64,000 bases of DNA from Verrucomicrobiia bacterium (GCA_035577265.1 DATLVR010000119.1:4353-68352); one strand, 5' to 3'. Shown: positions 1-37,327, counted from the stretch's first letter. The notes: generated from the sequence alone by a model not told the origin. A program made the numbers and translations.

Positions 1-1
1 G

Positions 2-409: not shown

Positions 410-529
410 AATTTTCGCGGAGCGTGATCAGACATTCACCAACCGTCCGGTTGCAGGGTCGTCACCCTTTCCTCATTCTGCCAAGTGCAGCCAGCTAATT
501 TTGACCGAAACCTAAATCCCAAACTGCTT

Positions 530-2657: not shown

Positions 2658-2744
2658 CCCCAACCATTCCGTCAAGCCCACGGATGAAAATCATTGGATG
2701 CATGGGCCGCCCCTCCATCCCTCAGGCCAAAACCCATTGGTGAT

Positions 2745-3446: not shown

Positions 3447-3481
3447 CCCGGCGGCAGATTATTTTTCAACCGGAAATATTT

Positions 3482-4711: not shown

Positions 4712-4809
4712 CCGGAAGACATTCTGCGGCGCCATGTGCGCGAGGCCAGGCACGCCCGTCCGCAGGTAGGTGTTTACCGGCGAACTTTGCGGTTTTTATC
4801 CCCTTATCC

Positions 4810-6384: not shown

Positions 6385-6442
6385 ACCATGAACCTTTTTT
6401 GCGCCGGCACCATGTCAACGCATTCGCAGAAAAACCATCGCC

Positions 6443-8449: not shown

Positions 8450-8469
8450 AATCATTACATTCGCGCATC

Positions 8470-9603
8470 ATGAAAATTCTGGCCATCACCAACCTGTATC
8501 CGTCGGCGGAGTTTCCCAGCCACGGCGTCTTTGTGCAGGAGCAAATCAAAGGTCTGTGCGCCATCGGCCTGGAGCTGCGCGTCCTGTTTGTGGACCGGCG
8601 ACGCAACGGGCCGATGGCCTATTATCGGTTGCACCACGAAGTTCGCGAGGCGCTGGCCGGGTTTGAACCCGATGTCATTCACGTGATGTATGGCGGAGTC
8701 ATGGCCGACCAAATTGTGCGGCATCACCATGTCTGTCCCGTCGTCGTGACCTTTCGCGGCTCGGATTTGCTGGGCGAAAACCTTTCGGGTCGGACGCGTC
8801 AAATCATTTCCCGCTACGGCGTTCATTGCTCCCGGCGGGCGGCCAGAAACGCGGACGGGGTGGTGGTGGTGGCGCGCCATCTGTTCGACGCCTTGAACGG
8901 AGCGGCGGCCGTGGACAAGGTGCGGGTGATTCCTTCCGGCGTGGATTTGACCCGGTTCAAGCCGATGGATTCGCGGCTGTGCAAGCAGAAGCTGGGCTGG
9001 AACCCGCAATCGTTCCATGTGCTGTTCGCCTCCAGCAGCGGCGATCCCGTGAAACGGCCCTGGCTGGCGAAGGCGGCGGTGGAGCAAGTCCGTCGCCTGG
9101 ACTGCCCGGCGGAATTCCATTTTATCACCGGCATTCCGACCACGGAAATGCCGCTCTGGCTCAATGCGGGCGATGCCGTGCTGCTGACTTCGTTGCACGA
9201 GGGTTCGCCCAACATTGTGAAGGAATCCCTGGCGTGCGGCGTGCCGGTGGTTTCCGTGGAGGTGGGCGATGTCGCCGAGCAAATCGCGGGCTTGGAAGGC
9301 TGCCATCTGGCGCGGCCGGAGCCGGCAGCGTTGGCCGTCAAGTTGCGCCAGGTCTGGCAACGCGGCACGCGCCTCGACTGCCCGGCCAGGTGCGAAGAAT
9401 TTTCAGTTTTGAACGTGGCGCTAAAGTCGAAACAGTTTTATGAGGAAATAGTCCGCGAGAGCAAAACCTCCCGGGGGTTCGCCACCGGCAGGGGGCTTTC
9501 CATTCCGACGGTTCTCCCCGTGCCAGTGACCCACGGCAAACAGATTGTCGGACGAATCGCCGTGCCGGATCAAAGTCACCTGACGCCTTCGGCAAAGGAG
9601 TGA
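8470..9603 (+). CDS. Family 4 (GT-B, group 1) glycosyltransferase
   Basis: The N-terminus reads MKILAITNLYPSAEFPSHGVFV. The C-terminal donor-binding block reads LLTSLHEGSPNIVKESLACGVPVVS. Confidence 0.85.
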   Translation: MKILAITNLYPSAEFPSHGVFVQEQIKGLCAIGLELRVLFVDRRRNGPMAYYRLHHEVREALAGFEPDVIHVMYGGVMADQIVRHHHVCPVVVTFRGSDLLGENLSGRTRQIISRYGVHCSRRAARNADGVVVVARHLFDALNGAAAVDKVRVIPSGVDLTRFKPMDSRLCKQKLGWNPQSFHVLFASSSGDPVKRPWLAKAAVEQVRRLDCPAEFHFITGIPTTEMPLWLNAGDAVLLTSLHEGSPNIVKESLACGVPVVSVEVGDVAEQIAGLEGCHLARPEPAALAVKLRQVWQRGTRLDCPARCEEFSVLNVALKSKQFYEEIVRESKTSRGFATGRGLSIPTVLPVPVTHGKQIVGRIAVPDQSHLTPSAKE

Positions 9604-9676
9604 TGCCGCCACGCGAACCCGCTGTGCGCGGCAACCGTCAAACACCAACCCACAAAAATTAAATCTGGAGGTTAAA

Positions 9677-11497: not shown

Positions 11498-11572
11498 TTC
11501 CATTTTGCCCTGCCGCCGGCCGCGGCAACGGATTTTTTTTAACCACCTGAATCAACAACCGAACCCCGCATC

Positions 11573-14500: not shown

Positions 14501-15301
14501 GGTGAATTGATGATTGGGGGCGCGGGCGTGGCGCGCGGTTATCTCGGCCAGTCCGAACTGACCGCCCAACGGTTCATTCACAATCCATTTCAGCACAACG
14601 GCGACACCCGGCTTTATCGCACCGGCGACCTCGCCCGGTATCTGCCGACCGGGGATATTGAACTGCTGGGCCGGACGGATCAACAGGTCAAGATTCGCGG
14701 CCATCGCGTGGAACTGGGCGAGATTGAAGCCATGCTGGGCGAGCATCCCACCGTGCACGAGAGCGTGGTCGTGGCCAGGGAAACCGCCAATGGCGACAGG
14801 CGCCTGGTGGCTTACGTCATTCCGCGCGACGGGCACATTCCGACGCAACGCCAGTTGCGCCAGTATGCACAGGAACGAATGCCCGATCACATGGTGCCGG
14901 CACACGTCGTGTTTCTGGCCAAGTTTCCCAAGACGCCCAACCAAAAAATCGACCGCAATGCCCTGCCCGCCCCGGACGCTGACGGGGCCGAAAACCAAGA
15001 CAGCCTTGAACCGCCCGTGACGGAGGTTGAGAAAACCCTGGCTTCGTTGTGGAGCGAGCTGCTCGATGTTCAGCGCGTTGGCCGGCTGGACAACTTCTTC
15101 GAGTCCGGCGGTCACTCGCTGCTGGCCATGCAGCTGGTAAGCCGGGTGCGAACCCGGTTTGGTGTCGACTTGCCGCTGAAGCATTTGTTCGAGCGCCCGA
15201 CCGTCGCCGGACTGGCCGAGGCCATTGACGCCTTGTCGTGGTCGGCCAGGACGAAATCGCCGGTTCAAGCCGCCCCCGAACGGGAGGAGGTCGAGGTATG
15301 A
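11573..15301 (+). CDS. NRPS-like protein: partial condensation lobe - adenylation domain interrupted by a luciferase-like monooxygenase - peptidyl carrier domain
   Basis: A-domain motifs run in order: LKSGSAYLPLDPAYP, YTSGSTGRPKG, FDISVLELF. An LLM-like block (MDFSLFYF...AVWTPERHF...SGWMPEDF) follows. The A domain then resumes with NMYGPTETT, GELMIGGAGVARGY, YRTGDL, GRTDQQVKIRGHRVELGEIE and PKTPNQKIDR. The PCP domain reads FFESGGHSLLAMQL. Confidence 0.9.
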   Translation: MNAIERQKTYWLSQLSEPPPPPRLPQDKDSPPVSSFLRETVSTTLAPEAWRGVTALAARAETTASAVLLAALNTLLLRYTGQTDFVIGTVLKADSAPQHRAIVALRTRLAGHQTAQDLVRQIAASLRAAATHADVPFGTVLEMLEPATGTASANVFTVALVFEEPENDPRPVDAGGEYLMACALVWRAREAGDGLEISCDYDAELFTAATVARLAGHLGNLLAAMTGDPHTTLERLNLLGAAELRQLLVEWNATAAEPPKATCIHQLFEAQARRTPEAVAAICRDRELTYAALNERANQVASHLAKLGAGPDVLVGLCVERSLEMLVGLLGILKSGSAYLPLDPAYPAGRLAYMIEDSRVNVLLTQDHLMAALPPGGARRTRLDADWPLIAAEPSENVDRRVAAHHLAYVIYTSGSTGRPKGVMVEHGNVLNFFTGMDARISHGPGSTWLAVTSPSFDISVLELFWTLARGVRIVIYAGDEAPGSASADRRAFSASPMDFSLFYFSSDQVDGPGGAYRLLTEGARFADEHGFVAVWTPERHFHEFGGLYPNPSVTSAALAMITKRVQIRSGSVVAPLHSPIRIAEEWSVVDNLSNGRAAISFASGWMPEDFVVSPANYAQRKEIMLRDIEIFRRLWHGERVPLPGPLGNDVAVRIFPRPVQRELPLWLTASGNPETFQMAGKLGMNLLTHLLGQSIEEVSKKIELYRQAWTEAGHAGRGCVTLMLHTFVGDSLESVKAAVRGPLIEYLRKSADLIKGYAWAFSAFKHHSKSREELDFSLLSKDEMDALLEHSFERYFETSGLFGTPASCVKIIAGLKANDVDEVACLIDFGVDHETVLEHLKQLEVLRQAAGTGAEVQPADYSIATLIQRHQVTHLQCTPTMAGMLLAEERTRDAFTRLQCLMIGGEAFPAPLAAQLKTIVKGEIINMYGPTETTVWSSTYRISSEPGRISVGHPIANTEMYILDQNLLPVPVGVTGELMIGGAGVARGYLGQSELTAQRFIHNPFQHNGDTRLYRTGDLARYLPTGDIELLGRTDQQVKIRGHRVELGEIEAMLGEHPTVHESVVVARETANGDRRLVAYVIPRDGHIPTQRQLRQYAQERMPDHMVPAHVVFLAKFPKTPNQKIDRNALPAPDADGAENQDSLEPPVTEVEKTLASLWSELLDVQRVGRLDNFFESGGHSLLAMQLVSRVRTRFGVDLPLKHLFERPTVAGLAEAIDALSWSARTKSPVQAAPEREEVEV

Positions 15302-16356
15302 AGATTCTGGATTTTCTGGTCCTGCTCCGTGAACGCGATGTCCGGCTTTGGGTTGACGGCGAACGGCTGCGCTGCAGCGCGCCGCCCGGCGCATTGACGA
15401 TCGAACTGCAACGCGCCATTCGCGAACGCAAGGACGAGATTGTGAAATTCCTGCGTCTGGCCGACTCCCTCGACCAGCCGCAGCGCGCCCTCGTGCCGTT
15501 GCAGCCGCAGGGAAATGCCATTCCCATTTTCGCCGTGGCCGGACACAACGGCGATGTCTTCTGTTTTCGCGCCCTCGCGCGGCATCTCGGCAACGACCAG
15601 CCGTTTTTCGGTCTGCAACCACCCGGACTCGACGGCGTTGAAGCGCCGTTGACGCGCGTGGAAGACCTGGCCGCTTGTTTTGCCGCGCAAATCCGCACGG
15701 CGCGGCCCGAAGGCGGTTGCGTCATCGCCGGCTACTGCGCGGGCGGAACGATTGCCTTTGAACTGGCACGTCAGCTGGTTCAAAGCGGCGCGCACGTCAG
15801 TTTTCTCGCCTTGTTTGGCAGCCCGTTTCCAACGTCCTACCGGTTTTGGCCGCGACTGCGCCAGGGTCTTGGCGAGGCGGCGGAGCGCGTGACGCGGCAC
15901 GCCCGCAAGCTGATGTCGCTGTCGGCGGCGGAACGGAAAAAATATTTCGCCGAACGGCTGCGCAACTTCCAGGCGGAGCGCGCCACCCGGCGCGCCGCCG
16001 TGCAGGATCCGGTGTTCGTTTGGCGTGACCAGGTCGGCTGCGCCACGCTGGCGGCCATTCGGCATTATGTGCCGGGCAACTTCTCCGGCCGCGTGCGCTT
16101 GTTTTGGCCCGGCAAAGAATGCAATCACACCGCGCTGCTGCAATGGCCGGCCGTCGCGCCGGACATTGAAACATATTTCGGCCCGGCCGGCTGCAATGGC
16201 ACGGTCATGCTCAACGAGACTTACGCGGCGGCGTTTGCCGAACTCTTCCGCCGTTCCGTGCCAGGAGCGCCGGATAGATCAATTGTCCAGCCCCAGCAGT
16301 CCGAGATACCGTCGCCCCGCTGGGAATCAGGCGCCATGAAACCATTGCCGTCTTGA
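15298..16356 (+). CDS. Stand-alone thioesterase (alpha/beta hydrolase) with TubC-like N-terminal docking domain; nucleophile motif GYCAGG
   Basis: The ATG at 15298 overlaps the upstream stop (ATGA). The docking-like segment reads ILDFLVLLRERDVRLWVDGERLRCSAPPGALTIELQ. The TE-like segments read PIFAVAGHNGDVFCFRALARHLGNDQPFFGLQPPGLDG and IAGYCAGGTIAFELARQL. Confidence 0.8.
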   Translation: MKILDFLVLLRERDVRLWVDGERLRCSAPPGALTIELQRAIRERKDEIVKFLRLADSLDQPQRALVPLQPQGNAIPIFAVAGHNGDVFCFRALARHLGNDQPFFGLQPPGLDGVEAPLTRVEDLAACFAAQIRTARPEGGCVIAGYCAGGTIAFELARQLVQSGAHVSFLALFGSPFPTSYRFWPRLRQGLGEAAERVTRHARKLMSLSAAERKKYFAERLRNFQAERATRRAAVQDPVFVWRDQVGCATLAAIRHYVPGNFSGRVRLFWPGKECNHTALLQWPAVAPDIETYFGPAGCNGTVMLNETYAAAFAELFRRSVPGAPDRSIVQPQQSEIPSPRWESGAMKPLPS

Positions 16357-16416
16357 AGCGGGCGGTCAGGCAAAGGAACAAAACCCCTTGGCGGTCAAAC
16401 GCGATTACACACCATC

Positions 16417-17208
16417 ATGCCGTTTCCATTGGCTCATCCGGCGGCGGTCTTGCCGCTGCGGCGACAATGCCCGCGAAGATTTAATTTTCCCGCGCTCGTC
16501 CTCGGCAGTCTCTGTCCCGATATCGGCTACTGCTTCGGCCACCTTCACGTCGCAAGATTTTCCCATCACTTTCTGGCGGGCGGTTTCGGATTCTGCCTGC
16601 CGGTGGGACTGTTGCTGGTGCTTCTGTTTTATCGGCTCCGCGGGCCCGTGATTCAACGGTTGCCCGCGCGTTACCGGCGGATTTTTGAGCCGCTCTGCCT
16701 GCGTCCCGCCGGTTCGTTTTGGGTCATTGTCATCTCACTGCTCGTCGGCGCGTGGACCCATATTCTTTGGGATTCCCTCACGCATGCCGATGGCTGGCTG
16801 GTCGGACATCTGCCCATCCTTCAAACCAGCGTGGGCCCGGGAAACGGGGCGTTCCTGATTTGCGATCTGCTGTATTCCATCAGCACCTTCGCCGGCGTCG
16901 CCTGGCTGGCTTGGGTGTATTTAAACTGGCTCGAATGCGCGGCGGGAACGCAACATTGGGTCTGGCCGGGATTCAAATGGATGTCCGTGGTGCTGCTTGC
17001 GGCATTCACGCTGCTGCTGTCCTTCGCCGGCCAGGGCCGGTTTTATTCGTTCGAGTTGAAAACCATCGCGCTGCTGAGCGCGCTGCTGGTGGCCGTGTTT
17101 TTTTCAGTCACCGGGTGGGCATTGCGCAACCGGCCGACGCCTAAACGGCGGAGTCCGGAGCGACGAGCCGACTGCCATTCCAGCGCTCAATTGGCCAAAG
17201 GAAATTAA
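16417..17208 (+). CDS. Polytopic membrane protein, DUF4184-like (YdjM-type metal-dependent membrane hydrolase superfamily)
   Basis: MPFPLAHPAAVLPL, GSLCPDIGY and THILWDSLTH are present, together with several hydrophobic helices. The family assignment is from memory only. Confidence 0.5.
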   Translation: MPFPLAHPAAVLPLRRQCPRRFNFPALVLGSLCPDIGYCFGHLHVARFSHHFLAGGFGFCLPVGLLLVLLFYRLRGPVIQRLPARYRRIFEPLCLRPAGSFWVIVISLLVGAWTHILWDSLTHADGWLVGHLPILQTSVGPGNGAFLICDLLYSISTFAGVAWLAWVYLNWLECAAGTQHWVWPGFKWMSVVLLAAFTLLLSFAGQGRFYSFELKTIALLSALLVAVFFSVTGWALRNRPTPKRRSPERRADCHSSAQLAKGN

Positions 17209-17261
17209 GTTTCATTTTTTAGTGTTCATCATTCGTCATGCAATCAACCAAATCAAAACCT

Positions 17262-18548
17262 ATGAAAATCGCCATCGTCGGACTTGGTTACGTCGGGCTG
17301 CCCTTGTCGCTGCAGTTCACCCGCTCCGAGGTCACTGTTTTGGGGCTGGACATTGACCCGGTCAAGGTGGCTTCGCTGAACCAGGGCACGAGCTACATCA
17401 AACACATCGAATCGTCCGCCATCGCCGAGGCGGTGGCGAGCGGACGGTTCAGCGCAAGCAACGACTTCGCGCGCATCCGGGAAGTGGAGGCCGTGATCAT
17501 CTGCGTGCCCACGCCGTTGAACAAAAACCGGGAGCCGGACATTTCCTTCATCATCAACACCGGCGCGGCCATCGCACCTCATTTGTCGAAGGGAACGCTG
17601 GTGACGCTGGAATCCACGACCTATCCGGGCACGACGGACGAGGATTTGCGGGCCGTGCTGGAAACGGGTTCCGGGCTGAAGGCGGGCCGGGATTTTCATC
17701 TGGCCTTTTCGCCGGAGCGCGAGGATCCGGGCAACGGCCACAGCAAAGTGGAGCTGATTCCCAAGGTGATTGGCGGTTACACGCCCGTTTGCCTGGAGCG
17801 CGCCAAGGCGGTTTATGGCCAGGCCATCCAGACGCTGGTGCCGGTTTCCTCGTGCCGCGTGGCGGAGGCGACCAAGCTGCTGGAAAACATCTTCCGCAGC
17901 GTGAACATCGCGCTGGCGAACGAGCTGAAACTGATCTATGGCGCGATGGGCATTGACGTTTGGGAAGTCATCCAGGCCGCGAAAACCAAGCCGTTCGGCT
18001 TCATGCCATTCTATCCGGGACCGGGCTTGGGCGGCCATTGCATTCCGATTGACCCGTTCTATCTGACGTGGAAGGCGCGCGAGTTTCTGCAAAACACCCG
18101 GTTCATCGAACTGGCCGGCGAAGTCAACACCGCGATGCCGCTGTATGTGGTAAACCGCACGGCGGAGGCGCTCAACGCCCGGCGCAAGGCGGTGAACGGC
18201 AGCCGCGTGCTGGTCGTCGGCCTGGCATACAAACCGAACGTGGACGATGATCGCGAATCGCCCAGCTACGTCCTGATGAATCTCCTGGAGGAACGCGGCG
18301 CAGACGTGGCCTATTACGATCCTTATGTGCCGGTCATCCGCCCGACCCGCGAACATCCGGATTGGGCGGGAACGCGGTCGGTGAACTGGGATGCCGACAC
18401 GCTGAAGCGGTTTGATGCGGCCATCGTCGCGACGCATCATCAGGCGATCAACTTCCAGGAACTCGCCGACTGGGCGCCGTGCATCGTGGACACGCGCAAC
18501 GCCATGGCCGCCGCCAAAACCAAGCCGGACCAGGTTTGGAAAGCGTGA
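17262..18548 (+). CDS. Nucleotide-sugar 6-dehydrogenase (UDP-GlcNAc/ManNAc/Glc dehydrogenase family)
   Basis: The N-terminus reads MKIAIVGLGYVGLPLSLQF. AFSPEREDPGN and GPGLGGHCIPIDPFYL (catalytic Cys) are present. GLAYKPNVDDDRESPS is also present. An alternative start lies at 17238. Confidence 0.9.
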   Translation: MKIAIVGLGYVGLPLSLQFTRSEVTVLGLDIDPVKVASLNQGTSYIKHIESSAIAEAVASGRFSASNDFARIREVEAVIICVPTPLNKNREPDISFIINTGAAIAPHLSKGTLVTLESTTYPGTTDEDLRAVLETGSGLKAGRDFHLAFSPEREDPGNGHSKVELIPKVIGGYTPVCLERAKAVYGQAIQTLVPVSSCRVAEATKLLENIFRSVNIALANELKLIYGAMGIDVWEVIQAAKTKPFGFMPFYPGPGLGGHCIPIDPFYLTWKAREFLQNTRFIELAGEVNTAMPLYVVNRTAEALNARRKAVNGSRVLVVGLAYKPNVDDDRESPSYVLMNLLEERGADVAYYDPYVPVIRPTREHPDWAGTRSVNWDADTLKRFDAAIVATHHQAINFQELADWAPCIVDTRNAMAAAKTKPDQVWKA

Positions 18549-27743: not shown

Positions 27744-27907
27744 AAATTGCGCTTCGGTTCGTGTATTAAATAGATTATTGTACATATTTGGAAATCTAAT
27801 TCGCGCTGGAATAGAAACCAAGGCTGTCTGGCTCAGAGGGAAATGCCACGGTTGGCTCCACCATTTTCAATGCATCGAGTCTTGCATCGATGAGATTCGA
27901 GCCGCTT

Positions 27908-27968
27908 AGGCTCCACCATTCTAAACCGCCCGCCAATGTTGATTCAGTTCAATGTTGGCGGGATTTTG
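27908..27968. repeat. Direct repeat copy A (tRNA-Ala-like acceptor end + about 47 nt downstream)
   Basis: Copy A reads AGGCTCCACCATTCTAAACCGCCCGCCAATGTTGATTCAGTTCAATGTTGGCGGGATTTTG. It is nearly identical to 36939..36998 (1 indel and a few mismatches). A degenerate T-arm-like sequence lies just upstream. A further short copy, GGCTCCACCATT, lies at 27854..27865. Confidence 0.85.
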
Positions 27969-28289
27969 ATTAATTGGGACAGCCGCAGCTGGACTTTCGG
28001 GCCGAGTCTTTCGCTGCCGATTTTCACGGGCGGACGCAACCGGGCGAATTACAAATTCGCGCAGGCGGCCTTTCAAGAATCCACCGCGCTATATCGCCAG
28101 CAGGTGCTGGTGGCCTTTGGGGAAGTGGAGAATAGCCTTTCGGGGATTTATCATTTCGCCGTCCAAGCCGAGGCCACGCAACGCGCCGTCACCAGCGCCC
28201 GCCGCGCCACCGAACTGGCCACCGACCGCTATCCAGGAACTTGTGGCGGGTGTCGCACCTGTCAAAAATCCACTGGCGAGCGTAAATAA
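27936..28289 (+). pseudogene. C-terminal fragment of an outer-membrane efflux factor (TolC/NodT family) gene
   Basis: The translation NVGGILINWDSRSWTFGPSLSLPIFTGGRNRANYKFAQAAFQESTALYRQQVLVAFGEVENSL...ATELATDRY is the typical second repeat of OMF proteins. The N-terminal roughly 350 aa are absent, and the last about 40 aa diverge. Confidence 0.7.
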
Positions 28290-28515
28290 AGATGAAGGCC
28301 GTTAAAATAACCGGGTGCTTTTTATGAGCGGGTGCTCGATTTGAACAGCTCAATTCTGGTTTATTTTGACTTTTCATCCGCTGAAAAATGAGAGTAAATG
28401 AAATTGCGGATCATCATTTCATACCGTAAATATTCTTCCGAAGGGATGGATATGGGTTACCGAACGGTCGCGGGTGATGATATGACTAACTGTCTGCAAC
28501 ATATTAGGAGAGTCT

Positions 28516-29511
28516 GTGAATGAGACGATCGAATTTTTGGTTCGCCATGGTGCCATGGTCCTGTTCGCGGTGGTTTTTGTCGAACAGGTGGGGGTTCCCC
28601 TGCCTGCGGCTCCGTGGTTGCTCGCCGCAGGTGCTTCGGTCGGTTCAGGCAAAATGAATTGGGCGGTGGCGCTCTGCGCCGCCACGGTTGGCTCGTTGTT
28701 GGCCGATTTGATCTGGTTTTATCTGGGCCGCTACCGGGGCCAACAGGTCTTAAGCCTGCTCTGCCGCATCTCATTGGAACCGGACTCGTGCGTTCGCCGA
28801 ACCCAGAACCTTTATACGCGATACAAGATGCGAGGAGTTGTGTTGGCGAAATTTATCCCTGGCTTGAGCACGCTGGCGCCGCCGCTGGCCGGTAATTCCG
28901 GTGCAAGCACTTTGCGGTTCCTTTTCTTTGATGGCTTGGGTTCGTTGCTTTACGGGGGAAGTTTTATCGTTTTGGGAGTTTTATTCAGCCACCAATTGGA
29001 GCAGATCATCAATGCGCTTGCCGGTCTGGGGCATGGTGCGCTTGGTGTCGTTGTTGGATTGGCTGCACTTTACGTCGGCTACAAGTATTTTCAGCGACAA
29101 CGCTTGTTGAGCGAGTTGCGAATGGCAAAGATCACCGTGGATGAACTGCATCAAAAACAGGAGGCTGGTGAAACCCCCATTATTCTGGATCTTCGCTCTC
29201 AGATCGAACTTGAGCAGGACTCTTCACTCATTCGCGGCGCATTTCACATGACCATGGATGAGGTGCAGCTCCGTCATGAGGAGATTCCCCGCGACCGGGA
29301 TATCATTCTCTATTGTTCCTGCCCGAACGAAGTGAGCAGTGCGCGCGTCGCCTTGCAACTCCACCGTAAAGGCATTTTGAGAGTCCGGCCTTTGTTGGGG
29401 GGAATCGATGCCTGGCGGGAACGTAATTACCCGACGGAACCTCGCAGCGAGAAGCGGGCCTTCGATGTTGGCCTGGAAAGCAAGGGGCCTCCCCTGTCGG
29501 AAAATAGTTGA
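28516..29511 (+). CDS. DedA-family membrane protein fused to a C-terminal rhodanese domain
   Basis: The gene has a GTG start. The DedA part reads LVRHGAMVLFAVVFVEQVGVPLPAAPWLLAAG...LADLIWFYLGRYRG. The rhodanese part reads IILDLRS...IILYCSCPNEVSSARVALQL...GGIDAWR (active-site CSCPNE loop). Confidence 0.8.
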   Translation: MNETIEFLVRHGAMVLFAVVFVEQVGVPLPAAPWLLAAGASVGSGKMNWAVALCAATVGSLLADLIWFYLGRYRGQQVLSLLCRISLEPDSCVRRTQNLYTRYKMRGVVLAKFIPGLSTLAPPLAGNSGASTLRFLFFDGLGSLLYGGSFIVLGVLFSHQLEQIINALAGLGHGALGVVVGLAALYVGYKYFQRQRLLSELRMAKITVDELHQKQEAGETPIILDLRSQIELEQDSSLIRGAFHMTMDEVQLRHEEIPRDRDIILYCSCPNEVSSARVALQLHRKGILRVRPLLGGIDAWRERNYPTEPRSEKRAFDVGLESKGPPLSENS

Positions 29512-29559
29512 GATAAACGGCAGCTTTGAAATAGTGTCATCAGATGGAGTAAAATATCT

Positions 29560-30186
29560 ATGAAAACAAAATCCCTTGAAAAATCGAAGCGTCCGACTTT
29601 TGTCATTCGCGTTCACCTGACGGACGGTTCGGTGGAATCCTTCGCGCAAACGGACGCGATTGAGGCGCAAAAGCTCTGGGACAAAATCGAGCCATCACGT
29701 TTGTTCGCCGCATCGCGGCTGGTTATCGCAGGTGAATATTCCAAGTCGGTCTTCGTCACCGCCCACATTCTGCGGGTGGATTTCATCCAGGAAACCAACG
29801 AGTGCTGGCAGTTTCCCGGCGGTTTCTCGGATGTGGTGGAGCTGTCGGAAGAGGATTTCAGAAAGAACGCGCATTTGGATGAACCGGAACTCATGGCAGC
29901 GCGGGAGCAGCCCACGCCGGTCGGTGACCTCCTCGTATCGTTTCTCAAGCTGCAGATCACCGGAGCCAGGCCGCTCTATTTGATGATTGAATTTCCGGTG
30001 AAGCTGCCGGCCGAGAATCAGTCATTCATGCAATTCATGCTGTCGAAGAGTGGATTGCATATGCGGTTGTGCGGCGGTGGCATCGGCGTAATCAACCTCG
30101 CGCATCTCGCGGGTTACACCGTTTATCCCGGTGTGGCGCAAGTTCCCGCCGACAGCTGGGTTGCCGAACCACTACCTGAGAACTGA
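29560..30186 (+). CDS. Hypothetical protein (no domain recognised)
   Basis: This is a 208-aa ORF in the same orientation, 48 nt after the DedA gene and 11 nt before the next gene. Its codon usage resembles its neighbours. No motif was recognised. Confidence 0.5.
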   Translation: MKTKSLEKSKRPTFVIRVHLTDGSVESFAQTDAIEAQKLWDKIEPSRLFAASRLVIAGEYSKSVFVTAHILRVDFIQETNECWQFPGGFSDVVELSEEDFRKNAHLDEPELMAAREQPTPVGDLLVSFLKLQITGARPLYLMIEFPVKLPAENQSFMQFMLSKSGLHMRLCGGGIGVINLAHLAGYTVYPGVAQVPADSWVAEPLPEN

Positions 30187-30197
30187 CGCACACCGTT

Positions 30198-31859
30198 ATG
30201 GCCAAACCTGTGATCTGGACAGTGGATGATGACCCGGACGTATTACGGGCTGTTGAGCGCGATTTGCGCCATCAATATGGTGATCGTTACAAAGTCATCT
30301 CCGCCGATTCCGGCGCGTCCGCGCTTGAATCGGTGAAGCGATTGAAATTGCGCAATGAACCCGTGGCGCTGTTTCTCGTAGATCAGCGAATGCCGCGCAT
30401 GTCTGGCGTGGAGTTCCTGGAAAAGGCGATCGAGTTTTACCCGGATGCCAAACGCGCGTTGTTGACGGCTTATGCGGACACCGACGCCGCTATTCGCGCC
30501 ATCAACAGCGTGCAGATCGATCATTACTTGATGAAGCCTTGGGATCCTCCGGAAGAACGACTCTTTGGCGTGGTGGATGATCTGCTCGATGATTGGCAGG
30601 CGTCTTATCGTCCGGTGTTTGAAGGCGTGCGCGTGATCGGCCATCGCTGGTCGCCCCAGTCCAATGAGATCCGTGACTTTTTGGGGCGCAACTTTGTGCC
30701 GCATCAATGGCTCAACATCGAGACGGATGAAAGCGCCAAACAGCTTCTCGCCACCACTGGCAGCGCCGCCGCGTTATTGCCAGTGGTTGTCTTTCCAGAC
30801 GGATCCTTTCTGGTGAATCCTTCCACTGCTGAAATCGCCCGGAAACTCGGATTGAAGACCAAGGCGGAATGTCCCTTCTACGATTTGGTGGTCGTCGGCG
30901 CCGGCCCGGCCGGTCTGGCCGCGGCAGTTTACGGAGGCGCCGATGGCCTGCATACGTTGTTGATTGAACGGGAGGCTCCCGGCGGGCAGGCGGGCCGGAG
31001 CTCGCGTATCGAAAACTACCTGGGCTTTCCCGCGGGACTCAGTGGTTCGGATCTCGCCCGGCGCGCGGTTGCGCAGGTGCACCGTTTTGGCGTGGAAATC
31101 CTCGCGCCGCAGGAAGCCACCGGCGTCCGGATCGAAGGCTCAACCCGTGTGCTGACGCTATCAGACGGGTCGGAGATTGGCTGCCGCGCACTGCTGATCG
31201 CCAGCGGCATTGCCTTCCGAAAACTGAATGTGCCTGGATTGGATAAACTGAATGGCGCCGGGGTTTATTACTATGCACCCATGTCCGAGGCGTTCTCATA
31301 TAAGGACGGGGACATCTATATCGTCGGCGGCGCCAATTCAGCGGGCCAGGCTGCGATGTATTTTTCCAAATTCGCCCGCCAGGTCACGATGCTGGTGCGT
31401 GGCGATTCCTTGTCGGACACCATGTCGCAGTATCTCGAAAATCAGATTGCCGCGACAAAAAACATCACCGTGCGGATCAACGCCAGTGTCATCGCGGTGG
31501 AAGGCGTGGACCGTTGCGAGAAAATAACCATTCAAAACAACCAGACCCGGGAACAGGAAATCGTGTCCGCCAGTGCGCTGCTGATTTACGCGGGGGCGAT
31601 TCCCCGCACCGACTGGCTCGCAGGAATCGTGGAACGCGATGCGCAGGGCTACCTGATCACCGGCCAGCATCTGATGCGCGAGGGGCGACGTCCGAAGGGA
31701 TGGCCGGCGGATCGTGATCCGCTCTATCTTGAAAGCAGCGTTCCCGGAATTTTTGTTGCCGGCGATGTTCGCCATCGGTCCGCCAAAGGCGTCACGTCCG
31801 GCGTCGGCGAAGGAGCGATGGCCGTGAAGCTGGTTCATGAATATCTTGGCCTTTTATGA
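30198..31859 (+). CDS. Fused response-regulator receiver / thioredoxin-reductase-like flavoprotein lacking the CxxC redox centre
   Basis: The receiver domain reads VIWTVDDDPDVLRAV...LFLVDQRMPRMSG...LLTAYAD. FAD motifs read YDLVVVGAGPAGLAAAVYG and FVAGDVRH. The second dinucleotide motif reads YIVGGANSAGQAAMYF. The CATCDG position reads YYYAPMSEAF. Confidence 0.85.
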   Translation: MAKPVIWTVDDDPDVLRAVERDLRHQYGDRYKVISADSGASALESVKRLKLRNEPVALFLVDQRMPRMSGVEFLEKAIEFYPDAKRALLTAYADTDAAIRAINSVQIDHYLMKPWDPPEERLFGVVDDLLDDWQASYRPVFEGVRVIGHRWSPQSNEIRDFLGRNFVPHQWLNIETDESAKQLLATTGSAAALLPVVVFPDGSFLVNPSTAEIARKLGLKTKAECPFYDLVVVGAGPAGLAAAVYGGADGLHTLLIEREAPGGQAGRSSRIENYLGFPAGLSGSDLARRAVAQVHRFGVEILAPQEATGVRIEGSTRVLTLSDGSEIGCRALLIASGIAFRKLNVPGLDKLNGAGVYYYAPMSEAFSYKDGDIYIVGGANSAGQAAMYFSKFARQVTMLVRGDSLSDTMSQYLENQIAATKNITVRINASVIAVEGVDRCEKITIQNNQTREQEIVSASALLIYAGAIPRTDWLAGIVERDAQGYLITGQHLMREGRRPKGWPADRDPLYLESSVPGIFVAGDVRHRSAKGVTSGVGEGAMAVKLVHEYLGLL

Positions 31860-33265
31860 TTACAGATCCGGCCACGCTCCAGCAGGTCCGTTCCACTCCG
31901 CTCTTCTCGGAGTTGGACAGCACGCACCTCAGCTGCATCGAGCCGGGCGACATCATCAACCTGGCCAACGGGACCGTTTTGATTTCCGAAGGTGAACGAT
32001 CCCCGTTTTTCTTTGTGGTTCTCGAAGGCGAAATTCGTCTCTCGCGGACCTATGACCGTCAGACGGTTCTGATGGGCGTCATCAAGTCTGGTGAATACAC
32101 CGGGGAAATCACGCTTCTGCTGGACATTGCCTGGATGGCGACGGCGCGGGTGGGAAAACCAGCCAAGTTGTTCCGGCTCGGCCAGGAGGATTTCTGGCAC
32201 ATGATGGGCACCTGCCGCTCCGTCGCCCGGAAAATTTTTTATAGTGCGGCGAACAAGGTGCGCAACCTGGAAGGCTATTCGCTGCAACGGGAAAAGCTCA
32301 CCTCGCTTGGCACCATGGCGGCGGGCCTGGCGCACGAACTCAATAATCCGGCGGCGGCGGCACGCCGGGCGGCCGCACATCTGCAGGAAACCACCGACAA
32401 AATCCAGACGCTCCTTTGTCAACTGACGCGAACGCTCGAACACGAACAGATGCGGCATATGGTGACTGCGTCACAGGATGCTTTGGAGCGTTTGAAGCTG
32501 GCGCCAGCACTTGACCACCTTGAACGCAGCGATCGCGCAGATGCCATTGCCATCTGGCTCGAAACCCATGGCGTGGCGGCGGCCTGGGAAATCGCTCCGG
32601 TCTTCGTCAACGCCGGCGTGGACATCGCCTGGCTCGAGGAATTCGCGGGCAAGCTTCCGCCAGCAAACCATCCGGAGGCCCTGGGCTGGCTGGAGGCCCG
32701 CTTAAGCTTGAAATCGCTGATTGGCCAGGTCGAGCAAAGTGCCGGACGGATTTCGGAACTGGTCAAGGCGGTCAAATCCTATTCCCGCATGGATCAGTCT
32801 GCGATGCAAGAGGTGGACATTCATGATGGCTTGGAGAGCACGTTGACCATGTTGGGCCACAAATTGAAAAGCATCACGCTCATTCGGGCGTATGATCGAT
32901 CCGTGCCGCGCATCATGGCTTACGGCAGCGAACTCAACCAAGTCTGGACCAATCTGATTGATAACGCGATTTATGCCGTTAATGGCACCGGCAAAATTTG
33001 CATTGGAACCTGCCTGGAGGATAATCAATTGGTTGTCGAAATTGTGGACAACGGTGCCGGCATTCCCCCGGAGATCCAGCCGCATCTGTTCGAGCCGTTT
33101 TTTACGACCAAGCCGGTGGGCACCGGCACCGGCCTGGGCCTGATCATCAGCAATCGCATCGTGGCCGATCGTCATGGCGGCGAAATCGAATTTGAATCCA
33201 AGCCGGGCGAGACCCGATTCAAAGTCCGTCTGCATCTGGCTCATCCCGCAGACCCTGTGAAATGA
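31856..33265 (+). CDS. Cyclic-nucleotide-binding-domain histidine kinase
   Basis: The ATG overlaps the upstream stop (ATGA). The cNMP-like beta-barrel reads LFSELD...ISEGERSPFFFVVLEGEIRL...GEYTGEITLL. The H-box reads LGTMAAGLAHELNNP. The N and G boxes read NLIDNAIYA, DNGAGIP and GTGLGL. Confidence 0.85.
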   Translation: MITDPATLQQVRSTPLFSELDSTHLSCIEPGDIINLANGTVLISEGERSPFFFVVLEGEIRLSRTYDRQTVLMGVIKSGEYTGEITLLLDIAWMATARVGKPAKLFRLGQEDFWHMMGTCRSVARKIFYSAANKVRNLEGYSLQREKLTSLGTMAAGLAHELNNPAAAARRAAAHLQETTDKIQTLLCQLTRTLEHEQMRHMVTASQDALERLKLAPALDHLERSDRADAIAIWLETHGVAAAWEIAPVFVNAGVDIAWLEEFAGKLPPANHPEALGWLEARLSLKSLIGQVEQSAGRISELVKAVKSYSRMDQSAMQEVDIHDGLESTLTMLGHKLKSITLIRAYDRSVPRIMAYGSELNQVWTNLIDNAIYAVNGTGKICIGTCLEDNQLVVEIVDNGAGIPPEIQPHLFEPFFTTKPVGTGTGLGLIISNRIVADRHGGEIEFESKPGETRFKVRLHLAHPADPVK

Positions 33266-34404
33266 ATAGTGCTGCCACAACGGATTTGGAAACCGACGTG
33301 CATTGGATGCCGGATGGTTCCGCCCGGGTCGTGCTTCGTGGCTGGCTGACCACACAGACCACCGTGGATTGCTGGCATCAACTGGAGCGCGACTTGCGGG
33401 GCGCAAAAATTACCACTCTCGAAGTGGATGCGAGCGGTCTGCAATTATGCGGCGGTGCGGGCCTTGCCTTGCTCCGCTACCTTAACATGGGGAAGATGAC
33501 GCCGCAGGCCAGCGTTTCGGTGACCGGCCTGGGGACAGAGCTGGACCAGATGTTTCGCGGATTCACGGCGGAAGACTACGAAGCTTTTCGTCCATCAGTG
33601 AAGCTCAAATGCCAATCGTTGCCCGCAGAGACGGGAGCCGCCGTCAGACAAACCGCCGCCGATTTACGCGAGGTGGTGGCGTTCATCGGCGAAATCGTGG
33701 GCAAGCTGCCAACAACCATTTGGAACCGTAAACGTATGCGCTGGCCGGAAGTGCGCCGGGTGTTTGAGCTGGCCGGCGCAAATGCGGTGCCCATCACTTC
33801 GCTGATCAGTGTGCTGGTCGGACTGATCATCGCCTTCGAGGCGGCCGAGCAATTGGCCAAATTTGGCGCCCAAATCTACGTGTCCAACATGATCGGACTG
33901 GTGATGGTGCGGGAACTCGGACCGTTGCTTGCGGCCATCATGCTGGCGGGCCGTTCCGGGTCGGCGTTTGCGGCGGAAATTGGAACGATGAAGGTGAATG
34001 AGGAATTAAACGCACTGGAAACGTTCGGCCTCGATCCGGTCCGGTTCCTGGTTATCCAACGCATCACCGCCGGGATTATGCTGACACCACTGCTGACATT
34101 TTATGCCACTTTGATGGGACTCTTGGGCGGGATAATGGTCACGCTTGGCCTCGGCTTTCCGCTTTCGCTGATCATCAGCCAATTGGCGTCCACCGTTCAT
34201 CTGAGTGATGTCGCCCTGGGCATTGTCAAGGGCGTGGTCTTTGGTGCGATTGTCTCCGGAGTCGGTTGTTTGCGTGGCCTGCAAACGCAGCAGGGACCGA
34301 GTGCCGTCGGCGTTTCCACCACGCGCGCGGTCGTGACCAGCATCCTGTTGATCGTCATCGCCGACGCCGTTTTCTCAATCCTCTTCTATGCCCTGAAGTC
34401 ATGA
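33262..34404 (+). CDS. mlaE: MlaE-family ABC permease with N-terminal STAS-like domain
   Basis: There is an ATGA overlap with the kinase gene. The N-terminal about 100 aa are STAS-like (VVLRGWLTTQTTVDCW...TLEVDASGLQLCGGAGLALL). The permease core reads LVGLIIAFEAAEQLAKFGAQIYVSNMIGLVMVRELGPLLAAIMLAGRSGSAFAAEIGTMKVNEELNALETFGLDP. Confidence 0.85.
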   Translation: MNSAATTDLETDVHWMPDGSARVVLRGWLTTQTTVDCWHQLERDLRGAKITTLEVDASGLQLCGGAGLALLRYLNMGKMTPQASVSVTGLGTELDQMFRGFTAEDYEAFRPSVKLKCQSLPAETGAAVRQTAADLREVVAFIGEIVGKLPTTIWNRKRMRWPEVRRVFELAGANAVPITSLISVLVGLIIAFEAAEQLAKFGAQIYVSNMIGLVMVRELGPLLAAIMLAGRSGSAFAAEIGTMKVNEELNALETFGLDPVRFLVIQRITAGIMLTPLLTFYATLMGLLGGIMVTLGLGFPLSLIISQLASTVHLSDVALGIVKGVVFGAIVSGVGCLRGLQTQQGPSAVGVSTTRAVVTSILLIVIADAVFSILFYALKS

Positions 34405-35183
34405 GCCAGGAAACTGACATCATCATCTCGGTGCGTGGCCTCAAAATCGGCTACGGTGAGAGTGTCATTCTCAAGGATATCAATTTCGAGGTCCGGCGCG
34501 GCGAAGTGTTCGTGATTCTCGGCGGTTCGGGCTCCGGGAAAAGCACCTTGCTGAAAACGCTCATCAGTCTGTATGCCCCGCTTGAAGGGGAGGTCTTGAT
34601 TTCTGGTCATAATCTGGTGACGGCTGATGACGACGAACGCATGGTGCTGCTCCGAAAAATCGGCGTTCTCTATCAAGGCGGCGCGTTGTTTGGTTCCATG
34701 ACGTTGCTGGAGAATGTGCGGCTGCCGCTGGATGAATTGACGGGGCTGCCTGAACCATTGAAAGAGTTAATTGCCCTCTCCCGGTTGAAACTGGTTGGTC
34801 TTGGTGATGCCGCGCAAAAGATGCCGGCAGAACTGAGCGGCGGCATGCAAAAGCGGGCGGGCATCGCCCGCGCCATGGCGCTGGATCCACAAATCCTTTT
34901 CCTCGACGAACCTTCCGCCGGACTGGATCCAGTGACCTCCGCCGGACTGGATCAATTGATCATTGATCTGGCACATCATTTCGGAATCACCTTTGTTATC
35001 GTCACCCACGAACTCGCCAGCATTTACAATATCGCCAACCGCTGCATCATGCTCGATGGCCGGGCGCGAACGATTATCGCCGAAGGCAAGCCGGCCGAAC
35101 TTCGAGCCCAAGCTTCCGACCCGTGGGTGCGCCAGTTTTTTAACCGCGAGCCGGACGCGATACACGCGGCCCATCCAAACTGA
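34401..35183 (+). CDS. mlaF: MlaF-type ABC transporter ATP-binding protein
   Basis: There is an ATGA overlap with the permease gene. Walker A reads GGSGSGKST, the signature reads LSGGMQKRAGIARA, and Walker B reads ILFLDEPSAGLD. Confidence 0.9.
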   Translation: MSQETDIIISVRGLKIGYGESVILKDINFEVRRGEVFVILGGSGSGKSTLLKTLISLYAPLEGEVLISGHNLVTADDDERMVLLRKIGVLYQGGALFGSMTLLENVRLPLDELTGLPEPLKELIALSRLKLVGLGDAAQKMPAELSGGMQKRAGIARAMALDPQILFLDEPSAGLDPVTSAGLDQLIIDLAHHFGITFVIVTHELASIYNIANRCIMLDGRARTIIAEGKPAELRAQASDPWVRQFFNREPDAIHAAHPN

Positions 35184-35188
35184 ATCTC

Positions 35189-36160
35189 ATGAACCAGGCT
35201 ACTAACAACTTTAAACTCGGCCTGTTCACGCTGGTCGGACTGCTTATTTTGATCGTTGGCGTGCTGACCTTTGGAGCGCGCAGTTATCTTAAACCGACCA
35301 CCTTGTTTGAGACTTACGTCGCCGGCAACGTCACCGGGCTGACCGTCGGATCACCCGTTGAACTGCGCGGGGTGCAGGTGGGAAAAGTCACCCACATCGG
35401 TTTCTCCTGGATCGAATATCAACTGACGCAACCGAGCTACATCGTCGTGGAGTTTCAGGTGCAGAATCAAGTGTCGCCGGAACCGCCCGGCGAATTCCAT
35501 TGGAGCCAGCTCAAAATAGAGGTTGAGCGAGGGCTTCGGGCACGACTCAAAAACAAGGATATCACGGGAACCACCATCTTATCACTCGAATATCTCGACC
35601 CGACCAATAATCCACCGGTGCAAGTTCCCTGGACTCCAAGGAATATTTACATCCCGGCGGCGCCGGGTCAATTCGTGGAAATCCTCGATTCCATCGAAAA
35701 GTCTCTGCGGAATGTTGCGCAAATCGATTTCGGGGACATAAACCGGCTGGTGCAGGATGATTTAAAATCGGCGGGACGCGTATTGGACAAGGTAGCTCAG
35801 GTGGATCTTCAAGGGTTGAGCACAAATGCCAACGCTTTGCTGGCCGAGTTGCGGGACAGCAACACCAAACTGCAATCGATCATAAAAAACACGGACGAAA
35901 CGGTTCAGAAAATCCACCTGGAGAAATTGGCCGCGGATGTGGACGGGCTCGTCAACCAGTTGCAGGCGACGGTTACCGCACTTCAGCCTGGTCTGGCGAA
36001 TATTGATTTTGCGTCAGTGAATCAGACACTGGCCAACGCCCGTCGCGTCTTGCGTGATATGGATGACGTTTTGACCGAGTTGAAACGGTATCCGTCGGGA
36101 TTCATTTTCGGAGAACCGCCACCGCCGGTAAAAGCACTGCAAACGCCCGCTAATAAATAG
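35189..36160 (+). CDS. mlaD: MlaD/MCE-domain substrate-binding protein
   Basis: There is an N-terminal TM helix. The MCE core reads FETYVAGNVTGLTVGSPVELRGVQVGKVTHI. The C-terminus is long and helical. Confidence 0.85.
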   Translation: MNQATNNFKLGLFTLVGLLILIVGVLTFGARSYLKPTTLFETYVAGNVTGLTVGSPVELRGVQVGKVTHIGFSWIEYQLTQPSYIVVEFQVQNQVSPEPPGEFHWSQLKIEVERGLRARLKNKDITGTTILSLEYLDPTNNPPVQVPWTPRNIYIPAAPGQFVEILDSIEKSLRNVAQIDFGDINRLVQDDLKSAGRVLDKVAQVDLQGLSTNANALLAELRDSNTKLQSIIKNTDETVQKIHLEKLAADVDGLVNQLQATVTALQPGLANIDFASVNQTLANARRVLRDMDDVLTELKRYPSGFIFGEPPPPVKALQTPANK

Positions 36161-36183
36161 AAATTTCTTGAACAAACCGAATC

Positions 36184-36858
36184 ATGAAGAAACCACATCG
36201 CATTACGGGATTGGCCGCGGGAGCTGTCACCCTGCTGTTGCTGACAACTGTAGCCGGGCTTACGGGCTGTCTTTCCAAGCCGGCCTTGAACAAACAGACC
36301 TTTGCGTTCAACGTTCCACCGGCAGCGAACACAAACCATTTCGACAATCATTGCATCCTTGGAATAAGAAAGTTGCAAATCGCCGCGCCTTTTGAAGGAC
36401 GATCCCTTGTCTATCGCACCGGAGAATTTTCCTACGAACGCGATCCTTATGCGGAATTTTTGGAAGCGCCTGGTGATGAGCTGCTCCCGGTTATGAGCGA
36501 GTGGTTGCGTCGATCCGGAAACTTCGACGCAGTGGTCGCAGCCGGCAGCGCGCTCAAGCCAGATCTGCTCGTTGAAATCACGGTCAGCCAGTTATTCGGC
36601 GACTTCCGCCAACCAAAACATCCCGCTGCCAGCATTGCCGTTCGATTTGTTTTTTTGGAAGCAACGAATGGCATTCCAGGAAGGCCGGTGTTTAATAAGG
36701 ATTATACACAGAGCATCCCGCTGAGGGGGCCGACTGCCGACGCATTGATGGCAGGGTGGAATGAAGCGTTAGCCAATATCGCGGCTGAAGTTTCGTCCGA
36801 TCTTGGCGGCATAAAAACTGCACAAAGCATAAACGGTGCTGGTATTCAGCCGCAGTGA
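36184..36858 (+). CDS. ABC-transport auxiliary lipoprotein (PqiC/ABC_trans_aux-like)
   Basis: The lipobox reads LLTTVAGLTGC. The protein is 224 aa and sits immediately after the MCE gene. LVYRTGEFSYERDPYAEFLEAPGDEL is typical of this family. Confidence 0.7.
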   Translation: MKKPHRITGLAAGAVTLLLLTTVAGLTGCLSKPALNKQTFAFNVPPAANTNHFDNHCILGIRKLQIAAPFEGRSLVYRTGEFSYERDPYAEFLEAPGDELLPVMSEWLRRSGNFDAVVAAGSALKPDLLVEITVSQLFGDFRQPKHPAASIAVRFVFLEATNGIPGRPVFNKDYTQSIPLRGPTADALMAGWNEALANIAAEVSSDLGGIKTAQSINGAGIQPQ

Positions 36859-36899: not shown

Positions 36900-36949
36900 C
36901 CACAATGGCATTGTGGGGGTCGAGAGTTCGAGCCTCTCAGGCTCCACCA
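36900..36949 (+). pseudogene. 3' half of a tRNA-Ala(GGC)-like gene (anticodon arm to CCA); 5' half not present
   Basis: The anticodon arm is CCACA-ATGGCAT-TGTGG (U33, GGC, A37). GGGTC forms the variable loop. GAGAG-TTCGAGC-CTCTC forms a perfect T-arm. AGGCTCC-A-CCA forms the acceptor end, with a T at the position that would pair with G3. No complementary 5' acceptor strand or D-arm lies in the 41 nt after the upstream stop codon. Confidence 0.6.
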
Positions 36950-36998
36950 TTCTAAACCGCCCGTCATGTTGATTCAGTTCAATGTTGGCGGCATTTTG
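36939..36998. repeat. Direct repeat copy B (partner of 27908..27968)
   Basis: Copy B reads AGGCTCCACCATTCTAAACCGCCCGTCATGTTGATTCAGTTCAATGTTGGCGGCATTTTG. Confidence 0.85.
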
Positions 36999-37327
36999 TT
37001 TAATAAGTGAGTGTGGTTTGACGGATGCGATAACAGGTCGCCGACTTCAAATTCAGAACTCGGATGCTTGGCGACTGGATGAAGCCCAGCCCGCCACGTT
37101 CTATCAGGATGCCGTCAACCGTGCTGCCACTGTAACTGACGAAGATCGTCGGCACCGGGTATTTGCATGGCAAACGTATTCTAGAAACCGTCCGTGACGG
37201 AATAATTTCCGCCGGTCATCGCGAGGTTGGCATCGGGCCGTCCGAGATGATGATTTGTTAACTTTCATACGTCAATTAAACCCGCGCTGGCCTTAAAGCC
37301 AGTTATGCTTATAGGGAAAATGCTTTG

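Follow-up and report, generated by a model that had tools for sequence, protein, structure and literature searches.

How tightly is a lipid transporter tied to a signalling system when the genes for both are packed into one unit? The question is raised by eight genes (g1–g8) in a 64,000-nucleotide (nt) stretch of DNA from a Verrucomicrobiia bacterium (GCA_035577265.1, DATLVR010000119.1:4353-68352), which we call the window and in which the genes occupy positions 28,516 to 36,858. A DedA-rhodanese gene and a gene for a protein with no recognised domain are followed by a two-component pair (g3–g4) and by a four-gene cassette for an Mla/MCE-type lipid transporter (g5–g8). A preliminary description of the locus took it for a lipid-trafficking machine under direct redox and cyclic-nucleotide control, with a STAS gate on the permease. 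We arrive, with moderate confidence, at a looser arrangement, in which three independently conserved modules (g1–g2, g3–g4 and g5–g8) have been brought into one unit within a mosaic redox and envelope stress neighbourhood of soil Limisphaerales, with co-expression as the main coupling between them. The unit in the window is best read as one permutation of that neighbourhood, a lineage-specific fusion that has packed the modules tightly into an operon with translational coupling. Only some relatives share the join of g1–g8, which therefore looks more like common regulation under stress than like a gated transporter of a new kind. For the unit itself we infer a single transcript, a lipid substrate, a role in stress and coupling by co-expression.

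All eight genes lie on the + strand at the positions first assigned to them (Table 1), and the three ATGA overlaps and the gaps of 5–48 nt described earlier are all present. The overlaps fall at g3/g4 (31856), g4/g5 (33262) and g5/g6 (34401), the remaining junctions being gaps of 48, 11, 5 and 23 nt, and an independent gene caller gave identical gene boundaries on contigs of the same organism. Such overlaps of a stop with a start codon imply that the genes concerned are translated together in the window. Eight co-directional genes with such spacing are typical of an operon rather than a chance pattern, and from the spacing only g1–g8 are most likely a single transcription unit. An AGGAGAG Shine-Dalgarno sequence stands 6 nt ahead of the GTG start of g1, and a sigma-70 search of the intergenic region 5′ of that gene gave no strong consensus. 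GC content and GC3 are homogeneous over g1–g8 and thus give no hint of recent import. Hydrophobic segments are absent from g2, g3, g4 and g6; g1 and g5 are polytopic and g7 has one N-terminal transmembrane segment. The source is an uncultured soil member of the Verrucomicrobiota, probably of the order Limisphaerales: proteins identical to g2 are encoded on contigs of several soil metagenomes, and the labels on close homologues are Verrucomicrobiota, Limisphaerales or Pedosphaera.

Table 1. The eight genes and the region upstream of them, with the basis of each assignment
Feature	Position	Strand	Basis
Intergenic region 5′ of g1, probable promoter region	28290..28515	+	sequence reading; promoter role inferred
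g1 DedA/VTT-rhodanese	28516..29511	+	Pfam and NCBIfam
g2 soluble 208-aa protein without recognised domain	29560..30186	+	Pfam and NCBIfam blank
g3 response regulator: REC, Grx-like, TrxR-like flavoprotein	30198..31859	+	Pfam/NCBIfam and alignments
g4 soluble histidine kinase, CRP/cNMP-like N-terminus	31856..33265	+	Pfam/NCBIfam and motifs
g5 STAS-MlaE permease	33262..34404	+	Pfam/NCBIfam and PDB profile matches
g6 MlaF-type ABC ATPase	34401..35183	+	MlaF model and motifs
g7 MlaD/MCE protein	35189..36160	+	MCE domain, PqiB model
g8 PqiC-like outer-membrane lipoprotein	36184..36858	+	ABC_trans_aux and lipobox

Linkage of the modules in related genomes

To compare the surroundings of these genes we classified the neighbours in 28 GTDB species loci anchored on g2 and in metagenome loci anchored on STAS-MlaE (individual loci are numbered with the prefix L). 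The same modules recur with their order shuffled between species: an EmrA-EmrB-x-OMP efflux operon (OMP, outer-membrane protein), g1, g2, the g3–g4 pair and the Mla cassette. Further recurring modules comprise Zwf/Pgi/transaldolase/histidine phosphatase genes, a peroxiredoxin with a DsbA-like protein, Dps, SDR/ADH genes, and a PAS-GAF kinase with LuxR and REC regulators. In the arrangement that we favour the three modules of the window would be co-expressed in a redox and envelope stress programme.

The linkage between the signalling pair and the Mla genes, which had been noticed in the window, does recur in some Limisphaerales, but it is not general. Mla genes lie within the fetched flanks of g3–g4 in 4 of 13 other species and directly adjoin the pair in three of those, by a g4-to-g5 junction in L016 and L029, as in the window, and by a g8-to-g3 junction in L044. 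Elsewhere the cassette borders g2 (g8 to g2 in L018 and L023), or directly follows an efflux OMP gene (L018, L049) or a GH15 gene (L024), and the 3′ neighbour of g4 in other species is DUF5335, SDR or g1. At least one of g1–g4 is found within about 10 kb of the cassette in 9 of 12 close-relative Mla loci, the other three having none; the expectation for chance placement in a genome several Mb in size is well below 1%. Linkage to Mla is therefore far above random, yet it is loose, does not extend beyond one lineage and does not single out the signalling pair.

These counts bear on the possibility that there is no functional link at all, the unit being a local rearrangement within an inherited syntenic block whose tight spacing reflects genome compaction only. 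The labelled loci that have the linkage are all from Verrucomicrobiota (those from metagenomes carry no label), the order of the modules is highly variable with unrelated GH15, efflux and ADH genes interleaved, and the placements of Mla directly behind an efflux or GH15 gene fit such a block. However, the proximity has outlasted many rearrangements, and the overlapping codons in the window point to co-translation, which leads us to consider this explanation rather unlikely.

Several points weigh against coupling by co-expression in a stress programme. The stress theme rests on the annotations of neighbouring genes only, and for the transporter, the flavoprotein and the DedA protein any substrate is putative. 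There is a promoter-like site within the g1–g2 gap, and none of the RNA runs that we searched for the locus sequence carried it. Finally, Mla has been kept beside g2 or g3–g4 through several independent junctions, which could mean a tighter physical link than co-expression. On balance we regard the locus as mostly an instructive case of known modules that have been fused into one operon in one lineage.

The g3–g4 pair

Hidden Markov model searches recovered all of the domains that had been assigned by eye, including STAS, cNMP and MCE, with STAS just under its cut-off. In g3 a REC domain (amino acids (aa) 7–118) is followed by a Grx-like stretch (aa 145–217), which matches a mycoredoxin model at 1e-9, and by a thioredoxin reductase (TrxR)-like FAD/NAD(P)H domain (aa 228–550). 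This last domain is found by Pyr_redox_2 and matches the TrxR model TIGR01292 at 7e-62 with 208.9 bits, under the cut-off of 343 for that model. The REC residues are all kept (D10–12, the acceptor D62, the T in LLTAYAD and the K in MKPW), as are the Rossmann motifs for FAD and NAD(P)H, GAGPAG (aa 234–239) and GGANSAG (aa 377–383). On alignment to TrxR structures in the PDB the redox cysteine pair (CATC) is found to be replaced by Y359 and S363 in the sequence YAPMS, and the CATC-less domain is common to 13 orthologues and six relatives from other phyla. The Grx active site CPYC is likewise replaced, by SPQS (WSPQS, aa 151–155); the CPxC positions are Ser or Ala in the REC-fused orthologues and the sequence is CYSPDT in a cNMP-fused paralogue from Rhodococcus. 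Because the TrxR-like domain has no redox CxxC and its FAD/NAD(P)H motifs are intact, g3 is predicted to be a REC-controlled flavoprotein that cannot be a thioredoxin reductase. Both replacements extend to all orthologues and to the relatives in other phyla, and they make the proposed redox control doubtful.

The kinase g4 carries a cNMP_binding domain (PF00027, aa 35–117) that scores 48.8 bits against a cut-off of 27.5 and aligns without gaps to the domains of PKA R-subunits (7e-13). The Glu of the “GE” motif is retained, but the Arg of the phosphate-binding cassette (R of “PRAAT”) is Trp93, and Arg is also absent from this column in g4 homologues of Streptomyces, Deinococcus and Caballeronia. 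Because of this replacement canonical binding of cAMP or cGMP by g4 is doubtful, and with it the cyclic-nucleotide control that had been suggested; in the large open reading frames (ORFs) of the window we saw no adenylate or guanylate cyclase. A HATPase_c domain covers aa 359–462, and although the HisKA match is weak the H-box HELNNP (H160) is present together with the N and G boxes NLIDNAI, DNGAGI and GTGLGL. Between them g3 and g4 thus carry all of the two-component motifs, and phosphotransfer from one to the other is predicted. An insertion of approximately 85 aa (aa 200–285, window positions 32453–32710) separates the H-box helix from the second DHp helix, with the motifs RSDRE..WL..G...W.LAP.FV.AG kept from Limisphaerales to Streptomyces, Deinococcus, Caballeronia and Nostoc. 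The insertion could serve in docking or sensing; it is not interpretable from the AlphaFold2 model of g4, a single-sequence model of poor quality (pLDDT 37.8).

The pair is found well beyond the Limisphaerales. Within that order all 12 species-level loci with a complete g3 have g4 next to it. Full-length g3 homologues with 50–63% identity are encoded on large plasmids of Nostoc, Deinococcus, Gloeothece, Caballeronia, Paraburkholderia, Tsukamurella, Streptomyces and Nocardia, where NCBI names them “fused response regulator/thioredoxin-disulfide reductase”. On the Deinococcus, Caballeronia and Streptomyces plasmids a g4 homologue, 38–41% identical and with the CRP-like domain included, directly follows the g3 homologue with the same 4-nt overlap. 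Neither Mla genes nor g2 were present near the pair in the four plasmid loci (Deinococcus, Caballeronia, Streptomyces and Nostoc). The combination of REC with TrxR is listed in Galperin's census as a “Mycobacterium-like” architecture (PMC5847659), and our literature search returned no functional study of the g3–g4 pair or of proteins under the NCBI name. By its sequence conservation g3–g4 is an autonomous module, a two-component pair conserved across phyla, and it is a widespread, apparently unstudied two-component system with a flavoprotein as its output.

How such a pair would work can be sketched from its domains. The kinase would sense a cytoplasmic ligand through its CRP/cNMP-like domain and phosphorylate the REC domain of g3, which would in turn control the TrxR-like flavoprotein, so that the signal becomes an altered activity of an NAD(P)H-dependent flavoenzyme. 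Since g3 has no DNA-binding output domain, it cannot alone regulate transcription of the operon, and the output of the pair would be enzymatic or by protein contact rather than transcriptional. In a paralogue from Rhodococcus DK17 (WP_342341949) a cNMP_binding-type domain is fused straight to a g3-like Grx/TrxR-like core, and this fusion suggests that the connection of sensor to flavoprotein, whether by fusion or by phosphorelay, is ancient.

Some variations around the pair were observed in passing. In two species the gene after g2 is g4: g3 is missing from L010 (2374–4652), and in L013 (10001–13707) it was not recovered as an intact ORF; these absences may be due to gene loss, a pseudogene or an assembly frameshift. 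On Nostoc edaphicum pNe_3 (L115, 7001–12678) a transposase and a bestrophin gene lie between the g3 homologue and the kinase, and the N-terminus of this kinase is REC-like, not CRP-like. A small gene for a UBP-type zinc finger adjoins genes of the CxxC-less flavoprotein family (L118, 10110–10463; L119, 4280–4546; L120, 6292–6564) in Streptomyces, where it comes after the g4 homologue, in Rhodococcus and in Paraburkholderia, and it does not occur in the cluster of the window. Near it in Rhodococcus and Paraburkholderia are genes for ClpB or a Clp ATPase and for Hsp20, with TrxA in Rhodococcus as well. The zinc-finger protein is a possible conserved partner for these flavoproteins.

The transporter cassette, g1, g2 and the flanking sequence

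The permease g5 consists of an MlaE domain at aa 169–374 (PF02405, 226 bits; MlaE structures in the PDB, 1e-29) preceded by a STAS domain at aa 23–99. The latter is the weakest of the domain calls (STAS_2, 28.6 bits, 1.6e-6, just under a cut-off of 29.2). It is supported by a match to the MlaB model (9e-4), by SpoIIAA and MlaB being the sole PDB profile matches to the N-terminus, and by conservation of the domain in 49 homologues. The residue equivalent to SpoIIAA Ser58 and MlaB Thr52 is Gly65; among the 49 homologues this position is Gly in 28, Ser or Thr in 12 and another residue in 9, and no gene for a cognate STAS kinase or phosphatase was found in the cluster. As the phospho-site residue is Gly, the STAS domain of g5 would not be a phospho-switch, and it is best read as a built-in MlaB subunit rather than as a phospho-regulated gate. 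To call the permease “STAS-gated” was in this respect a misreading, for a STAS-MlaE fusion is a normal arrangement with MlaB built in, as in Brucella MpcE (PMC12436622).

The partners of the permease are those expected of an Mla-type system. The ATPase g6 has the Walker A motif GGSGSGKS, the signature LSGGMQ and the Walker B motif LFLDEP, and its best model is MlaF (PRK11831, 1.2e-57, below the equivalog cut-off). The MlaD protein g7 (323 aa) has its single MCE domain at aa 45–134, behind the transmembrane segment, and a C-terminal extension of approximately 190 aa; from this length and from the match to the PqiB model (3.8e-23 over aa 44–198) the extension is presumed to form a helical needle. 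The lipoprotein g8 matches ABC_trans_aux (PF03886, 37.4 bits, cut-off 26) and the LBF_0736 family (2.5e-28, below cut-off), has a lipobox LTGC with Cys29, and has as its sole PDB sequence match a weak one to XCC0632 (E-value 0.079). In the assembled Mpc-type machine the STAS domain would bind the MlaF ATPase, g7 would form a periplasmic needle capped at the outer membrane by g8, and phospholipid would be moved between the membranes.

The cassette is also independent of the genes in front of it. A metagenome scan anchored on STAS-MlaE gave 80 loci, dozens of which keep the full-length fusion, down to 38% identity, and over the same range most loci that are long enough keep the order g5-g6-g7-g8. 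None of g1–g4 is present in 21 distant STAS-MlaE loci with at least 5 kb of flank, or in L035, L041 and L046. By this conserved order g5–g8 is a standard, autonomous four-gene cassette, which in the majority of metagenome loci stands by itself.

This autonomy has to be set against the possibility that the two-component pair, possibly with g2, gates the transporter post-translationally, the phosphorylated REC-flavoprotein or g2 docking on STAS or MlaF so that lipid transport answers a redox or small-ligand signal. The overlap of g4 with g5 in the window is in keeping with such gating, and Mla adjoins g3–g4 or g2 by at least three junction types in different species. A response regulator without a DNA-binding output must act on proteins or metabolites, and MlaB, which binds and stabilises MlaF in E. 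coli, belongs to a type of STAS protein proposed to regulate MlaF (PMC7367683). However, 9 of the 13 other Limisphaerales loci with g3–g4 have no Mla nearby, as is also the case for the four plasmid loci from other phyla, and in other species g4 leads into DUF5335, SDR or g1 instead. The cassette with its fused STAS stands on its own in distant lineages, and the phospho-site of STAS is Gly. We therefore regard gating by the pair as unlikely, and direct gating of the transporter by either the signalling pair or g2 as hardly more than a slim prospect. If the coupling were real, the locus would offer a rare case of an MCE/Mla lipid transporter with a signalling system of its own.

Proteins of the DedA family flip lipids or undecaprenyl phosphate, and g1 would act on membrane lipid carriers. 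Its VTT/DedA domain (PF09335, aa 30–148, 48.7 bits, cut-off 33.9) is joined to a C-terminal rhodanese domain (PF00581, aa 207–302, 41.7 bits, cut-off 22.2), and hydrophobic segments are confined to aa 4–188. The rhodanese motif LYCSC (aa 265–269, a CxC) fits by eye the pattern of the LYCAU family, and the best model for this domain is indeed the “LYCAU” (seleno)protein family NF041203 (78.8 bits, under its cut-off of 115). A rhodanese fold with an active-site Cys is predicted. Against the UptA equivalog models g1 scores 47 bits, far under the cut-off of 250. In about 13 species loci g2 has this gene upstream of it.

The absence of a recognisable domain in g2 held up in Pfam and NCBIfam, neither of which gave a match. 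All of its 1251 homologues are named “hypothetical”, and clustering them at 50% identity gives 365 clusters; the best 120 share at least 68% identity with g2 and the few source labels among them are nearly all Verrucomicrobiota/Limisphaerales. The AlphaFold2 model, built on an alignment of 88 sequences, is confident (pLDDT 89.9, pTM 0.85) and has a predicted fold of two tandem beta-beta-alpha-beta-beta-beta units. Foldseek found no fold match to this model in the PDB (best TM 0.18), a profile search over PDB sequences found no relative, and no homologue was found in a search of plasmids. Distant homologues are rare and stand-alone in unrelated contexts, one of them adjoining Usp, hemerythrin and cytochrome bd genes. 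By these searches and its model g2 is a well-conserved family, mainly restricted to Limisphaerales, with a confidently predicted fold that has no match. A bolder proposal is that g2 and g3–g4 form a cytoplasmic sensing module that physically controls both STAS-MlaE/MlaF and the DedA-rhodanese flippase, through a phosphorelay linking redox or metabolic state to outer-membrane lipid homeostasis; we hold this to be quite improbable.

The sequence on either side of the genes raises one further possibility. A direct repeat of 79 nt, at 27896–27974 and 36927–37004, is 93–95% identical between its copies, which are spaced 9031 nt apart and bracket exactly g1–g8, with GGCTCCACCATT at 27854 near the upstream copy. 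The repeat resembles the 3′ end of a tRNA or tmRNA (T-arm and acceptor-CCA, including GGCTCCACCA), followed by a terminator hairpin and a T-run, as might be expected if the cluster were a mobile genomic island bounded by these copies. However, the window contains no intact tRNA or tmRNA, there is no integrase between the repeats, and the composition is uniform. The repeats are also polymorphic between strains, as the downstream copy lies within an indel of approximately 453 bp that strain variants L002 and L003 lack while retaining the whole operon, and other species have this gene order with no such repeat. A mobile island is very improbable on this evidence and we rejected it. A search for the repeat in viral contigs did not find it, and the copies might be old att remnants.

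Other features of the window were noted. The C-terminal part of an outer-membrane efflux protein (PF02321) is encoded by an ORF of 117 aa (27936–28289), which begins within the upstream repeat; a complete EmrA-EmrB-x-OMP operon is present at this place in the relatives L008, L018 and L049, and the window thus has a deletion. At 11573–15301 an ORF like those of nonribosomal peptide synthetases (NRPS; C-A-PCP) has a luciferase-like monooxygenase domain inserted in its adenylation domain, and it adjoins carbamoyltransferase and polysaccharide-biosynthesis genes. GC content falls from approximately 0.60–0.63 (window 1–18000) to approximately 0.51–0.58 (18000–64000), near 18–20 kb, at the boundary of the polysaccharide/NRPS region with the stress-gene neighbourhood.

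Comparison with known systems

The closest counterparts of g5–g8 are Mla-Pqi chimeric systems. Brucella abortus MpcEFDA has an MpcE with an N-terminal STAS domain homologous to MlaB, an MpcD of 331 aa and a PqiC-like MpcA, with no MlaC or MlaA (PMC12436622), and its architecture and gene order are the same as those of g5–g8. The same four-gene order is found in the operon of P. aeruginosa PA3211–PA3214 and Xanthomonas XCC0632 (PMC13631591), again a likeness in architecture. Systems of the Mpc and PA3211–14 type have a single-MCE MlaD of about 310–330 aa with a C-terminal needle, a range that includes g7. The cassette in the window differs from them in being translationally coupled to a preceding kinase gene and in its Verrucomicrobiota host. 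The E. coli and A. baumannii MlaFEDB complexes (PDB 6xbd, 7ch8, 6z5u) are more distant: their MlaE and MlaF cores are homologous to g5 and g6, and MlaF has a STAS partner in both systems, but in g5 this partner is part of the MlaE polypeptide and not a separate MlaB, with Gly at the equivalent of Thr52. The MlaD protein g7 is also twice as long as its counterpart in MlaFEDB, and a PqiC-like lipoprotein takes the place of MlaC and MlaA.

For g3–g4 the nearest relatives are the pairs annotated as fused response regulator/thioredoxin-disulfide reductase in Nostoc, Deinococcus, Caballeronia and Streptomyces, with identities of 50–63% for g3 and 38–48% for g4. Their domain order is identical to that of g3–g4, and the 4-nt overlap is common to those of Deinococcus, Caballeronia and Streptomyces. 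These four contexts, unlike the window, contain no g2, DedA-rhodanese or Mla genes; the neighbours are efflux, USP, LtrA or zf-UBP genes. The cNMP-fused TrxR-like flavoproteins, such as that of Rhodococcus DK17, share with g3 the Grx-like and TrxR-like core without CATC, but carry the CRP/cNMP-like sensor on the same polypeptide, whereas for g3 the sensor is on the partner kinase and the signal would pass by phosphorelay. ATII-TrxR, for which oxidation of NAD(P)H and reduction of DTNB and Trx have been reported (PMC6544261), is possibly a member of this group. Finally, g1 has the same VTT/DedA and rhodanese architecture as the rhodanese fusions of COG0586, a minority architecture in a subfamily of putative undecaprenyl-phosphate flippases (PMC10127716), and differs from these putative flippases in missing the UptA equivalog cut-offs.

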